Origin: an uncultured Bacteroidota bacterium
GTDB lineage: Bacteria; Bacteroidota; Bacteroidia; AKYH767-A; JABDAW01
Length of the DNA stretch: 64,000 nt
NCBI GenBank assembly: GCA_903844645.1
Contig: CAIMUP010000013.1
Coordinates: forward strand, 1,428-65,427
Direction: 5' to 3'
Positions 49,506 through 53,853 of the stretch are shown in pieces. A program made the translations under genes and the position numbers. The notes beneath the pieces are model-generated. The model saw only the letters and a program-made list of their open reading frames with translations. It searched no databases and had not been told where the DNA came from. Each line of letters begins with the position of its first letter. Within the stretch, counting starts at the first letter, position 1.

Positions 49506-49913
49506 TTGATGCATAAAAACCAGGAATCATTCTCTATTAAAAAGCGATTCAACAGCTTCGGATATGCCTTCAACGGCATTAAAATATTATTCAGAACCGA
49601 ACACAATACTTGGCTACATTTATTCGCTACGGTGGCGGTACTTGCGGCAGGATTTTTCTTCCATATTTCGGTTTTGAGTTGGTTTATGCTCGTTGTCGCC
49701 ATTGCTTTGGTTTGGATTACGGAGGCATTAAATACTGCCATCGAATACCTCGTTGATTTGGTTTCTCCCGAGTACCATCCCTTAGCTAAAAAAACGAAGG
49801 ATATTGCGGCAGCGGCGGTGTTCATCGCCTCCTTTTTTGCATTCATATTAGGAATAATAATAGTGTATCACGAGTGGATTTTACACTATCAAACCATTTG
49901 TTTAGGGCTTTGA
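49506..49913 (+). CDS. dgkA: diacylglycerol kinase (prokaryotic DgkA family)
   Basis: 135 aa, three TM helices, 'RFNSFGYAFNGIKILFRTEHN' N-terminal amphipathic helix and 'ALNTAIEYLVD' motif. Confidence 0.75.
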   Translation: MMHKNQESFSIKKRFNSFGYAFNGIKILFRTEHNTWLHLFATVAVLAAGFFFHISVLSWFMLVVAIALVWITEALNTAIEYLVDLVSPEYHPLAKKTKDIAAAAVFIASFFAFILGIIIVYHEWILHYQTICLGL

Positions 49914-49925
49914 AAAGGGAAAAAA

Positions 49926-50165
49926 GCCGACCGGATTTGGGAAAGATGCGGTCGGATATTTCCTTTCTCCGGTCGGATATTTCTTTTTTCCGGTCGGATA
50001 TTTCTTTTTTCCGGTCGGATATTTCTTTTTTCCGGTCGGATATTTCTTTTTTCCGGTCGGATATTTCCTTTTTCCGGTCGGAGATTTCTTTTTTCCGGTC
50101 GGAGATTTCCTGTTTCCGGTCGGAGATTTCCTTTTTCCGGTCGGATATTTCCCGTTACCGACCAT
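49926..50165. repeat. 21-bp tandem repeat, about 11 copies (unit CCGGTCGGATATTTCTTTTTT, with GAGATTTC variants)
   Basis: 'CGGTCGG' occurs at 49948, 49969+21k; it begins immediately after the dgkA stop. Confidence 0.92.
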
Positions 50166-50299
50166 TAATTTTTGGCTGATTAACGGAAGAAAATATATCT
50201 TTGACCCCTTACCAAAAAAATGAAGCCGCAAAAAGCGATTCCGAAGGACATAAAATGAATGAAACAAAACATAATAGTAAACTTAAAACAGACAGATAA

Positions 50300-51544
50300 A
50301 TGAGAGCACTTGAGAAGAAAATGAAAGCCTATACCGCGCCGGAAGAAGTGAAGGCATTGGGGATTTATCCTTACTTCCGCGAGGTGGGTTCGGGGCAAGA
50401 TACCGAGGTGATGATCGAAGGAAAAAAAGTCCTTATGTTCGGCTCGAACAGCTACATGGGGCTGAATAATCATCCCGAAGTGAAGGCTGCCGCGAAGAAG
50501 GCGATTGATATGTACGGCACGGGATGTTCCGGCTCGCGTTTCTTGAATGGGACATCGGTTATTCACATCGAATTGGAGGAAAAACTGGCGAACTTTGTGG
50601 GCAAGGAAGCGTCCTTGGTTTTCAGTACCGGCTATCAAACAAACCTTGGCGTGGTGGGAACCTTGACGGGTCGGCATGATTATATTATTCTGGATGAATT
50701 GAATCATGCTTCGATTATTGAGGGCAGCAGATTATCGTTTTCGAAGGTCTTAAAATTCAGCCATAATAACATGAATGACTTGGAAGATTTGCTAAAGAAA
50801 TTACCTGCCGATAAGATTAAATTAATCGTTGTAGATGGTATCTTTAGTATGGAAGGCGACATCGCCAAACTCCCTCAAATTATGGCTCTTGCCGCGAAAT
50901 ATGATGCTGCCGTTATGGTGGATGATGCCCATTCATTAGGCGTTCTCGGGAAGACGGGTAAGGGCACGGCAGATCATTATGGTTTGACCGATCAGGTGGA
51001 TATGATTATGGGCACTTTCAGCAAGTCTTTGGCATCCCTCGGGGGCTTCGTGGCGGCGAATGCAGATATTATTAAATACCTTAAGCACCATGCCCGCGCT
51101 TTGATATTCAGTGCAAGCATTCCCCCTGCTTCTGCGGCTACCGCGATGGCGGCTTTGGATATTATTCAGCGTGAGCCGGAACGCATCGTGAACCTTTGGA
51201 AAAATACCCATTACATGATAGCGGAATTAAAGAAAGAAGGCTTCGATTTGGGCATTACCGAGACTCCGATTATCCCAATTTATATTCGCGATAACATGAA
51301 AACTTTTATGTTCACGAAGCGGCTGTTCGATGAGGGGATATTTGTGAATCCTGTGGTTAGCCCTGCCGTGAAAAGCGATTCTTCTTTGATACGAATTTCC
51401 CTCATGGCGACCCATACCAAGGAACAAATTGATAAGACGTTGGAGAAGATTTATATGATTGCAAAGGAACTGGAATTATTCGAATTTCAGGCGACAAATG
51501 CCGGCAATCATTCCAACCATGCTGGCGACGATGATAACTTATAA
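50300..51544 (+). CDS. alpha-oxoamine synthase family PLP enzyme (serine palmitoyltransferase / 8-amino-7-oxononanoate synthase-like)
   Basis: 414 aa; 'SNSYMGL', PLP-lysine region '[16 protein letters not shown]', '[10 protein letters not shown]'; the typical AOS fold. Confidence 0.85.
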
Positions 51545-51691
51545 GGCAATGATGACGCCATTGCTGGCAATGATGACGCCAACGCCGGCAAAGACGACAA
51601 CTACGCTGGCAAAGATGACGTCTACGCTAGCAAAGACGACAACTTTGCTGGCAAAGATGATAGCTTTGCTGGCAAAGATGACAGCTACGCC
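51524..51691. repeat. 21-bp tandem repeat, 8 copies (unit GGCAAAGATGACNNCTACGCT), starting inside the 3' end of the AOS gene
   Basis: Units at 51545, 51566, 51587, 51608, 51629, 51650 and 51671, with a degenerate copy at 51524 that encodes the AOS C-terminus '...AGDDDNL*'. Confidence 0.92.
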
Positions 51692-51721
51692 ATCCCAAAT
51701 AACCTTAATAATGATATAATT

Positions 51722-52849
51722 ATGGAAATAACAATCAAAAAAGTCGAAAACGGAGCCGATAAGAAGAAGTTTATTGACTTCGTTCATGATTTATATGCCG
51801 ATGATCCGAACTATGTGCCTGAACTTTACATGGCGCAAAGCGATTTGATGAATCCTAAGAAGAATCCTTTCTTTTGGCATTCCAAGGCGGATCTTTTTCT
51901 TGCTGAACGCGATGGAAAAGTGGTAGGAAGAATCGCCGCCATAAGGAATAATAATTATAATGAATACGCGAAAACCAAAGTCGGCTTCTTCGGGTTCTTC
52001 GATGTTATAAATGATTATGAAGTGGCTAAGAAATTACTCGATACCGCTAACGATTGGATTAAAAAGGAAGGCTTGACGGACATTATAGGACCTACAAATT
52101 TCTCTACCAATGAAACTTGCGGCTTATTAGTAGAAGGTTTGGATTCTGCGCCTGTAATTATGATGACTTATAACAAGGCTTATTACAAAACCTTCTTAGA
52201 TAAATATGGTTTTACTAAGCAAATGGACCTGATTGCATACGTCCTGGACCCGATGGATATGCCGGAAAAGCTATTGCGATTAGCAAAAGGGATTGAGGAG
52301 CGTTTGAAGAGAAGAAACATTACCGTCCGCAAGATAAATATGAAGGATTTTAACAACGAAGTAGCCAAAGTAAAGGAAATTTATAATGCTGCCTGGGATA
52401 AAAATTGGGGTTTTGTGCCGATGACGGATGACGAATTCAAATTCCAGGCTAAGGATATGAAAATGATATTAGATAAAGACTTCGCGTATGTAGCCGAAGA
52501 CAACGGAAAGGTCATCGCGTTCTCATTAACTATTCCGAATGTGAACGAGGTGTTCAAAACCATCAAGCGGGGCAGGTTATTCCCGACGGGGCTGTTAAAA
52601 TTAGTATTAAATAAGAGCAAAATATCCAGCGTACGTGTGATTACATTGGGGGTGTTGGAGGAATATCGGAAGCTGGGTATAGACGTCGTGTTTTATGCTA
52701 AGAACATGGAAACCGCCCAACAGAAAAAACTTAAATATGCAGAGGCTTCCTGGATTTTAGAGAACAATAAGGAGATGAATTCTCCCTTAATTTCCATCAA
52801 TGCGAAGCCTTATAAAACATATCGTATCTTTGAGAAGAAGATAGTATGA
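51722..52849 (+). CDS. hypothetical protein, possibly a GNAT-fold N-acyltransferase
   Basis: 375 aa; 'VGRIAAIRNN...VGFFGFFDV' resembles a GNAT beta4-alpha3 motif; weak. Confidence 0.45.
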   Translation: MEITIKKVENGADKKKFIDFVHDLYADDPNYVPELYMAQSDLMNPKKNPFFWHSKADLFLAERDGKVVGRIAAIRNNNYNEYAKTKVGFFGFFDVINDYEVAKKLLDTANDWIKKEGLTDIIGPTNFSTNETCGLLVEGLDSAPVIMMTYNKAYYKTFLDKYGFTKQMDLIAYVLDPMDMPEKLLRLAKGIEERLKRRNITVRKINMKDFNNEVAKVKEIYNAAWDKNWGFVPMTDDEFKFQAKDMKMILDKDFAYVAEDNGKVIAFSLTIPNVNEVFKTIKRGRLFPTGLLKLVLNKSKISSVRVITLGVLEEYRKLGIDVVFYAKNMETAQQKKLKYAEASWILENNKEMNSPLISINAKPYKTYRIFEKKIV

Positions 52850-53853
52850 AGAAAGTTCTGATTACTGGTGCTAGCGGCTTTGTTGGTAGCTTCTTGGTGG
52901 AAGATGCCTTAAAAAAAGGCTACGAAGTATATGCCGGAATCCGCGGAAGTAGCAGCCGCAAGTATCTTCCTGATGAACGGATTAAATTTTTATCTCTCGA
53001 CTTCGGGAATACCAATCATCTTACCAAAAGTCTTGACGATTTTGCCCAAGAAAATAACGGCGGTTTCGATTTTATTATTCACGGAGCGGGGATTACGAAG
53101 GCAAATAATATTCAGCATTATTACGATGTCAATTATCTTAATACAAAACATTTTGTCGAAGCATTAATTACCACAAAAACGATCCCGAAAAAGTTTATTC
53201 AGGTAAGTTCGCTCGCCGCTTTTGGTCCGGGCAATCCAAAAACATTAGAGCCGATCAATCATACTCATAAGCCGATGCCGGTAAGTAGTTACGGAAAGAG
53301 TAAATTAGTTGCCGAAGAATATTTTGCTACTCTGAATGACTTTCCTTTTATTATTTTTCGCCCCACGACGGTATATGGTCCGAGGGAGCGGGATCTTTTC
53401 ACGGTTTTCCAGATGGTAAATAATGGTTTTGAATTCTATATCGGGAGGAAACCACAGCATCTTACCTTTATTTATGTCAAGGATTTGGTAACGCTGATGC
53501 TGGATTCGTTGGAGAGGGATATTATTAACAAATCGTACTTTGTTTCGGACGGAAAAAGCTATGAATCGAGCCTGTTGAATACTTATATTAAGCAGGGGCT
53601 GAATAAAAAAACCATCAAACTTACGATGCCGGTCGCGGTGGTGAAGGCTTTGGCGTTTACTTTAGAGAAAAGTTTCGGGTTATTTAATCAAATTCCGACC
53701 TTAAATAGTGAGCGGGTGAAAGAATTTGAGAGTACGAATTGGAAAGTATTCACGGATGACCTTTTCTTAGACTTCAATTTCAAACCGGAGTATGATTTGG
53801 AGCGGGGCGTGATGGAAACCATCGCCTGGTATAAGCAAGAAAAGTGGTTGTAA
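52846..53853 (+). CDS. NAD-dependent epimerase/dehydratase family (extended SDR) reductase
   Basis: N-terminal 'KVLITGASGFVGSFLVE' Rossmann motif; 'SSYGKSK' YxxxK catalytic dyad; overlaps the upstream gene by 4 bp (ATGA). Confidence 0.85.
   Translation: MKKVLITGASGFVGSFLVEDALKKGYEVYAGIRGSSSRKYLPDERIKFLSLDFGNTNHLTKSLDDFAQENNGGFDFIIHGAGITKANNIQHYYDVNYLNTKHFVEALITTKTIPKKFIQVSSLAAFGPGNPKTLEPINHTHKPMPVSSYGKSKLVAEEYFATLNDFPFIIFRPTTVYGPRERDLFTVFQMVNNGFEFYIGRKPQHLTFIYVKDLVTLMLDSLERDIINKSYFVSDGKSYESSLLNTYIKQGLNKKTIKLTMPVAVVKALAFTLEKSFGLFNQIPTLNSERVKEFESTNWKVFTDDLFLDFNFKPEYDLERGVMETIAWYKQEKWL

Follow-up and report, generated by a model that had tools for sequence, protein, structure and literature searches.

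A spt-bcerS-cerR gene cluster predicted to direct dihydroceramide synthesis in an uncultured Bacteroidota bacterium

Gene layout of the locus

We analyzed a 64,000-nt stretch of contig CAIMUP010000013.1 from an uncultured Bacteroidota bacterium (the whole stretch is hereafter called the window, and ORF coordinates are window positions). A sequence-only reading had proposed that four open reading frames (ORFs) in this window form an amino-lipid operon, which consists of a diacylglycerol kinase, an alpha-oxoamine synthase (AOS), a possible GNAT-fold acyltransferase, and a short-chain dehydrogenase/reductase (SDR). All four ORFs were recovered on the plus strand with the same boundaries. As described below, the last three, designated spt, bcerS, and cerR, very probably constitute a three-gene cluster for making dihydroceramide, the core structure of sphingolipids, de novo. 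The four ORFs are as follows.

49506–49913, plus strand: dgkA-family kinase gene, 135 aa; Pfam PF01219 (DAGK_prokar), 124 bits, E=2.6e-36
50300–51544, plus strand: spt, pyridoxal phosphate (PLP)-dependent AOS, 414 aa; Aminotran_1_2, E=1.8e-59
51722–52849, plus strand: bcerS, tandem-GNAT N-acyltransferase, 375 aa; weak Acetyltransf_1 match, 30 bits, residues 46–119
52846–53853, plus strand: cerR, extended SDR, NAD(P)-dependent, 335 aa; PF01370 (Epimerase), E=8.1e-28

The 4-bp overlap between the reductase and the GNAT-like ORF, which had also been claimed, was read directly in the sequence as ATGA, and because of this overlap bcerS and cerR are probably translationally coupled. The spacer between spt and bcerS is 177 bp long and contains no terminator-like site, and that between dgkA and spt is 386 bp long and holds a tandem array. 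This DNA was also found on metagenome scaffolds of environmental samples, and the nearest genomes are metagenome-assembled genomes (MAGs) labelled "Bacteroidetes bacterium".

Family assignments of the three enzymes

The AOS was compared with curated protein models and solved structures. Spt scored 684.8 bits against the NCBIfam model NF047600 (SerpalmtaseCFB, an equivalog for serine palmitoyltransferase (SPT); curated cut-off, 640), and it fell below the cut-off of each of the KBL, BioF, ALAS, and alpha- and beta-proteobacterial SPT models. Its match to the SPT of Sphingobacterium multivorum (3A2B/8GUH), an enzyme characterized both biochemically and by structure, reached 541 bits with 62% identity over an ungapped alignment (241 of 389 residues). 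Lower scores were obtained with a BioF/KBL enzyme (306 bits) and the Sphingomonas SPT (288 bits). The scores for the two cysteate acyltransferases, namely 260 bits for cysteate-C-fatty acyltransferase (28eh) and 232 bits for Alistipes SulA (7u7h), were lower than those for KBL-type enzymes. K242 (in the motif GTFSKS), H136, and R365 of Spt align with K244, H138, and R367 of 3A2B, which we take to be the PLP lysine and two active-site residues, so that the lysine, the histidine, and the arginine are all conserved. The window Spt is longer than the S. multivorum enzyme by ~20 C-terminal residues; by eye, its final codons resemble degenerate units of the downstream 21-bp array. By sequence, the window AOS is assigned as a Bacteroidota-type serine palmitoyltransferase. 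The earlier call of an alpha-oxoamine synthase holds, and the enzyme is not BioF-like, an outcome that would have told against the proposed amino-lipid operon: the AOS lies below the BioF cut-off and scores 541 bits to SPT. The amino-acid substrate, which had been regarded as unreadable from the sequence, is largely readable after all, given the equivalog-level match and the distance from cysteate acyltransferases.

The Bacteroidetes subgroup of Spt is reported to use acyl-CoA, and Rhodobacteria to require AcpR and AasR (PMC11324152). A gene encoding an acyl carrier protein (ACP) or an acyl-ACP synthetase was not found in the window cluster, and this would be consistent with an acyl-CoA-using enzyme of the Bacteroidetes type (PMC11324152).

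The product of the second gene had been called a GNAT-like protein with some doubt. Its AlphaFold2 model, built with 32 homologues, was confident (pLDDT 89.1, pTM 0.88), and in a Foldseek search of the PDB the best matches were all tandem-GNAT acyltransferases (among them 2wpw, 7q3a, 5kf1, and MshD; E ~1e-13), which confirmed the acyltransferase fold, whose absence would likewise have told against the earlier proposal. A tblastn search of a plasmid collection then linked the window GNAT to Escherichia coli YghO and to a Sphingomonas locus. bCerS is 35% identical to YghO over its full length (residues 3–374 aligned; pairwise E=6e-81) and 35% identical, likewise over its full length, to an N-acetyltransferase of Sphingomonas parapaucimobilis. 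Profile A1, made for the GNAT family, scored 304 bits with YghO and 263 bits with the Sphingomonas protein. The neighbours of yghO in E. coli comprise genes for a fatty acyl-AMP ligase, an NAD-dependent epimerase/dehydratase-family protein, an acyl carrier protein, and a class I/II aminotransferase, together with lptF/lptG. In S. parapaucimobilis, lptF/lptG lie beside the N-acetyltransferase gene with a fatty acid desaturase gene between them, and genes for an NAD(P)H-binding protein, an ACP, and an aminotransferase are also nearby.

These two matches can be connected to characterized enzymes through the literature. CC_1154, yghO (ECD_02850), and Swit_3908, among others, have been grouped as one orthologue set, "aca" (PMC9386255), and CC_1154 is cerS (bCerS, CCNA_01212), as CC_1164 is cerR (PMC11324152). 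Because YghO is listed as an orthologue of CC_1154, and CC_1154 is cerS, the window GNAT is a full-length homologue of recognized bCerS orthologues. Its sequence places it as a bCerS-family ceramide synthase, for which N-acylation of 3-ketodihydrosphingosine (3-KDS) or sphinganine is predicted.

The GNAT family is large, with 6,436 matches among the candidates scored and no fewer than 7,670 clusters when grouped at 50% identity (E ≤ 1e-3), and its members occur in Leptospiraceae, Streptomyces, and Ignavibacteria. A named Bacteroides homologue was sought in the clusters of 20 family representatives, which yielded only proteins of these three groups and metagenome proteins. The named matches of the GNAT gene were all labelled either "hypothetical" or "GNAT N-acetyltransferase", and neither the GNAT nor the SDR attained the cut-off of any NCBIfam model. 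Two variants of the family were also observed. Some genomes have a divergent second paralogue, such as the one between spt and bcerS in locus L033 (8854–9957), which shows 29% identity. Moreover, a 784-aa protein (P0121) contains two stretches that match the bCerS query, the better being residues 4–371, and Pfam GNAT domains in both halves; judged by sequence, it may have arisen by tandem duplication within the bCerS family.

The third protein carries the signatures of an extended SDR (epimerase/NDUFA9-like), namely the NAD(P)-binding Gly motif TGASGFVG (residues 7–14) and the catalytic YxxxK motif YGKSK (149–153), which are invariant in 28 orthologues (alignment A2); the translation also shows the pattern S..YGKSK. 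Profile A2, built from the Bacteroidota SDR orthologues, scored 206 bits with the SDR of a Streptomyces cluster, 191 bits with the SDR adjoining a fusion gene (L085), 159 bits with the E. coli CerR orthologue (ECD_02852-type), and 134 bits with the Sphingomonas protein. The best PDB chain scored 93 bits, and E. coli GalE, HldD, and RmlB scored ~60–73 bits. CC_1164, ECD_02852, and Swit_3897 are members of the corresponding orthologue set, "epi" (PMC9386255). On these sequence grounds the window SDR is assigned as CerR-like, that is, to the ceramide reductase family. An identity as KdsR, the BT_0972-type reductase, was rejected, since the SDR scored 24.6 bits against NF049977, whose cut-off is 400. 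CerR has no visible N-terminal signal peptide, and its Rossmann motif starts at about residue 7–8. The CerR of Caulobacter has been reported to be periplasmic.

Conserved linkage and the predicted pathway

The linkage of the three genes was examined in 80 loci, which were found by scanning a single genome of each species with the GNAT alignment and were then searched by tblastn with the window proteins; they represent several Bacteroidota orders, all outside Bacteroidales. Genes for SPT, GNAT, and SDR were close together on one strand in 58 of the 80 loci. The order was SPT-GNAT-SDR in 51, including L004 and L068, which were read by hand because their SDR gene starts no later than the point where the GNAT match ends, and GNAT-SPT-SDR in seven, found in Reichenbachiella and Cyclobacteriaceae. 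In the remaining loci, the GNAT gene had just one partner near (17), one or both partners lay 4–6 kb off (2), or no partner was seen (3); the contig ended <900 bp from the GNAT gene in nine of the 17 single-partner loci and in two of the three partnerless ones. Overall, bcerS adjoined spt in 68 of the 80 loci, and cerR was directly 3' of bcerS in most. The hosts of the trio included Chitinophaga pinensis, C. silvisoli, Taibaiella soli, Mucilaginibacter rivuli, three Reichenbachiella species, and many Saprospiraceae, besides Cyclobacteriaceae, and the trio recurred outside the phylum in Streptomyces, Sphingomonas, and E. coli. Synteny of the trio across the majority of the 80 independent genomes shows that the grouping is not due to chance. 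A metagenomic locus (L085, 7003–11258) further encodes a natural fusion of 780 aa (P0154), in which an AOS (residues 57–396) is joined to a bCerS-family GNAT (424–778); a CerR-like SDR gene overlaps the start of the fusion gene, and a PAP2 gene follows it. The present analysis thus shows to which family each of the three proteins belongs and that their genes are conserved as neighbours.

The substrates, the order of the second and third steps, and co-transcription can be predicted from work on orthologues. First, Spt, with K242 as its Schiff-base lysine, would condense L-serine with a long-chain acyl-CoA to form 3-KDS. Second, bCerS would N-acylate 3-KDS with a second acyl-CoA, giving 3-oxo-dihydroceramide. 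Third, CerR would use NAD(P)H to reduce the ketone at C3, yielding dihydroceramide. Acylation is placed before reduction because of knock-outs in two organisms: Caulobacter without cerR accumulates oxidized ceramide (PMC11087976), and in Bacteroides fragilis, 3-KDS builds up when cerS is knocked out and keto-dihydroceramide when cerR is (bioRxiv 10.1101/2023.05.23.541633). By analogy, spt is probably co-transcribed with bcerS-cerR across the 177-bp spacer.

Several points weigh against this assignment. The spacer to be crossed by that transcript is filled by a tandem array. The margin of Spt over the NF047600 equivalog cut-off is just ~45 bits. As a single sequence, CerR resembles the CerR orthologue of E. 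coli only modestly (22% identity; BLASTP E=5e-26), and in phmmer the difference is small, with 56.7 bits for that orthologue and 44.9 bits for the best PDB epimerase; the clear separation of CerR orthologues from other SDRs comes from the profile alone. In addition, the predicted tie to the Caulobacter proteins CCNA_01212/CCNA_01222 and the B. fragilis proteins BF9343_4218/BF9343_4240 passes through orthologues that the literature names in E. coli and Sphingomonas.

The same enzymes might also reach the same product in the eukaryote-like order, in which the SDR would make sphinganine first and the GNAT would then N-acylate it. This order has been proposed for Caulobacter by Olea-Ozuna et al. 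(PMC11324152), and B. thetaiotaomicron possesses the 3-KDS reductase BT_0972 and accumulates sphinganine (PMC9278070; bioRxiv 10.1101/2023.05.23.541633). The predicted cytoplasmic location of the window SDR, with its Rossmann motif near residue 7–8 and no signal peptide, would fit as well. However, the Caulobacter and B. fragilis knock-out phenotypes put the CerR-family enzyme after acylation, and BT_0972 is an SDR of another kind, the classical one, whose model the window SDR does not match (24.6 bits vs a cut-off of 400). The gene order spt-bcerS-cerR, moreover, fits the bacterial order. We consider the eukaryote-like order unlikely, though not negligible. The sequence-only reading had taken the steps as SPT, reductase, and N-acylation, which is the eukaryotic sequence of events; the knock-outs in both bacteria indicate that N-acylation precedes reduction.

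A sulfonolipid (capnine/sulfobacin) cluster would follow an identical chemical logic: the AOS would condense cysteate with acyl-CoA, the SDR would reduce dehydrocapnine, and the GNAT would N-acylate capnine. Sulfonolipids occur in gliding bacteria, the host is a member of the Bacteroidota, and a CHU_C-domain protein is encoded nearby. Nevertheless, this branch is unlikely because the AOS is an equivalog-level match to SPT and distant from the cysteate acyltransferases. The GNAT and SDR are also orthologous to proteobacterial ceramide enzymes, and we know of no report of sulfonolipids in proteobacteria bearing those enzymes. We therefore rate a sulfonolipid product as very improbable. Of the earlier proposal of a sphingolipid- or sulfonolipid-type amino-lipid unit, the conserved AOS/acyltransferase/reductase unit and the ceramide pathway stand, and the sulfonolipid part is unlikely on the scores of 541 vs 260 and 232 bits. 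That the GNAT and SDR serve a different pathway, for example the modification of sugar nucleotides or amino sugars, and adjoin the AOS fortuitously is scarcely credible: the Pfam match of the GNAT is weak, its fold matches include glucosamine N-acetyltransferases, and the best PDB matches of the SDR are sugar-nucleotide epimerases, but this is contradicted by the synteny (the genes are linked in 58 of the 80 genomes and also in three further phyla), the gene fusion, and the 4-bp overlap.

Further genes accompany the trio elsewhere, where it often lies inside a larger lipid cluster (L009, 12071–12979; L015, 13575–14894; L018, 4237–8125 and 15059–15947; L012, 7048–7662). Among the 80 loci, the extra genes encode PAP2_3 proteins resembling inositol phosphorylceramide (IPC) synthase (39 loci), myo-inositol-1-phosphate synthase (MIPS; 34), DUF5686/CarboxypepD_reg outer-membrane protein (30), fatty acid hydroxylase (24), PgpA (24), CDP-alcohol phosphatidyltransferase (21), GtrA (21), and DUF4833 (13). 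The PAP2/IPC-synthase-like protein, CDP-alcohol transferase, PgpA, and MIPS are homologues of the inositol-lipid genes BT_1522–1526 of B. thetaiotaomicron (PMC9246714). A search of the whole 64-kb window gave no match to PAP2/IPC-synthase-like protein, MIPS, CDP-alcohol transferase, PgpA, GtrA, fatty acid hydroxylase, DUF4833, or DUF5686. The window thus contains no head-group gene that would point to the final lipid.

Two loci assigned to Actinomycetota genera showed related arrangements. In Streptomyces tsukubensis (CP020700.1; L084, 9044–21113), the genes run PAP2_3, bCerS-family GNAT, an overlapping CerR-like SDR, a polyketide synthase (PKS) of 2,492 aa, and AOS, an arrangement suggestive of a sphingolipid-like product with an acyl chain supplied by the PKS. 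Contig JADCRZ010000008.1 (L044), from a MAG labelled Williamsia sp. (Actinomycetota), bears a Bacteroidota-type spt-bcerS-cerR cluster whose Spt and bCerS are 56–65% identical to those of the window and whose SDR is 35% identical; this contig is probably mis-binned or mislabelled.

Neighbouring genes, tandem arrays, and relation to known systems

The dgkA gene upstream of spt is real, as the diacylglycerol kinase call had it, with its Pfam match of 124 bits, but its membership of the operon was not borne out. A dgkA-like gene occurred within 10 kb of the trio in one of the 80 loci, where it lay downstream; in L004, the nearest relative, none was found in the 8.7 kb of sequence available upstream of spt, and in the window the array-bearing 386 bp separate it from spt. 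It is thus a mere neighbour outside the conserved cluster. A remote possibility is that this lineage-specific neighbour phosphorylates ceramide or a sphingoid base. Public metagenome records lack dgkA and instead annotate a 159-aa ORF on the other strand of this region (window 49346–49913; L001, 3667–4146), which is probably a gene-calling error. Upstream of dgkA, 46424–48589 encodes a protein of 721 aa that bears PKD and CHU_C domains, and 48636–49475 encodes a 279-aa protein whose family was not recognized and whose N-terminus resembles a lipoprotein signal (MKNVIKIMLFVAVATCLFSCGG). CHU_C is tied to type IX secretion and gliding, probably as a C-terminal secretion signal. Neither of these two genes was linked to ceramide genes in other genomes.

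Tandem arrays are a conspicuous feature of the window. There are 13, all intergenic, with a period of 21 bp (41/42 in two of them) and 2.8–12.5 copies, at the following positions.

Arrays 1–7: 1859–2044, 4111–4341, 8711–8919, 28847–29093, 34744–34861, 37951–38213, 41289–41426
Arrays 8–13: 43868–44152, 49949–50152, 51563–51690, 54399–54722, 58018–58151, 61985–62078
49949–50152: 21-bp array in the dgkA-spt spacer, ~10 units of CGGTCGGATATTTCCTTTTTC; Tandem Repeats Finder (TRF) score 338, 95% matches
51563–51690: 21-bp array filling the spt-bcerS spacer, ~6 units of GCTGGCAAAGATGACAACTAC; detected by TRF

The array between dgkA and spt contains 10 units in the window and eight in L001, and an assembly gap occupies this position in L002. 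The array between spt and bcerS is absent from the near relative L004, in which the two genes are just a few bases apart. A 21-bp length difference between metagenome samples was also seen downstream of cerR. The units share no motif, the best rotational match among them being 10.1 of 21 positions compared with 10.0 in shuffles. Period-21 arrays are present in the nearest relatives (L004–L006), and there are scarcely any in the other loci (~1.4 Mb in total). A search of the literature for intergenic repeats of 21 bp in Bacteroidota produced no relevant report. The arrays thus share the period alone (21 bp, about two helical turns), the two compared between metagenome samples vary in copy number, and the arrays are confined to this lineage. 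That they represent an undescribed class of regulatory or structural DNA, such as phased protein-binding sites, transcription insulators or terminators, or contingency loci, is a doubtful proposal to which we give little weight. If it were true, the number of repeat units might serve to switch or tune ceramide synthesis in this organism, as two arrays flank spt and one of them is intra-operon.

Four further ORFs, at 49874–50179 (plus strand), 49902–50267 (minus), 51459–51719 (plus), and 51539–51787 (minus), were rejected as genes, being translations of the tandem arrays; terminator-like matches upstream of spt were likewise dismissed as pairings among units of the 21-bp array. A long imperfect hairpin (54368–54559) was observed in a 1.1-kb gene-free stretch downstream of cerR. 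Its arms (54368–54452 and 54475–54559) are 85 nt each, 72% complementary, and separated by 22 nt, and their outer 21 nt are, by reading, near-perfect complements (ccgtcatcatatatgaaaacg and cgttttcatatatgatgacgg); it has no Rfam match. An Rfam search (E up to 0.1) over 48000–56000 gave no match, and ARAGORN detected no tRNA or tmRNA in the window. A sigma-70 scan showed no excess of promoter-like sites (21 vs 19.7 in shuffles). The Bacteroidetes −7 motif TANNTTTG sits 97 nt upstream of spt; since this motif is not enriched in the window (67 occurrences vs 64.6 expected), its position was set aside as evidence.

The predicted pathway can be compared with those already described. Caulobacter crescentus Spt (CCNA_01220/CC_1162), bCerS (CCNA_01212/CC_1154), and CerR (CCNA_01222/CC_1164) share the three enzyme families and the predicted chemistry with the window. 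However, the Caulobacter and other proteobacterial clusters encode AcpR and AasR, with LptF2/LptG2 near, whereas the window cluster has no such ACP or acyl-ACP synthetase gene, and cerS lies ~8 genes from spt in Caulobacter, whereas the three genes are contiguous here. The E. coli B/enterotoxigenic E. coli locus yghO-aasR-epi-acpR-spt (ECD_02850–02854) contains the full-length homologue YghO (35%) and an epimerase-family gene that is the top non-Bacteroidota proteobacterial match of the window SDR profile; it is nevertheless of the AcpR/AasR-dependent type, with yghO divergent and a gene order unlike that of the window. Spt, CerS (BF9343_4218), and CerR (BF9343_4240) of B. fragilis belong to the same phylum and pathway as the window proteins. 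In known sphingolipid-producing Bacteroidota the three genes have been described as dispersed (PMC11334938), in contrast to the tight cluster of the window and of most loci of Chitinophagales, Sphingobacteriales, Saprospiraceae, and Cytophagales examined here.

More distant parallels are the capnine/sulfonolipid pathway (CapB/SulA and dehydrocapnine reductase), which shares an AOS, keto reduction, and N-acylation, although the window AOS is closer to SPT, and the eukaryotic SPT-KDSR-CerS pathway, which passes through the same intermediates to the same end product and starts with a homologous enzyme. The eukaryotic Lag1-type membrane-bound CerS and KDSR are unrelated to the bacterial GNAT and extended SDR, and the last two steps are probably reversed.

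The enzymes, which had been presented as open candidates, belong to families that are already named (bCerS and CerR). As the Spt/bCerS/CerR pathway is established in Caulobacter and B. fragilis, the window cluster is an ordinary further example of it and adds little on mechanism. Nonetheless, the links to YghO/bCerS and CerR would let sphingolipid capacity be annotated in many environmental Bacteroidota, and the tight cluster, often found elsewhere beside inositol-lipid head-group genes, would offer a compact three-gene unit for heterologous reconstitution.

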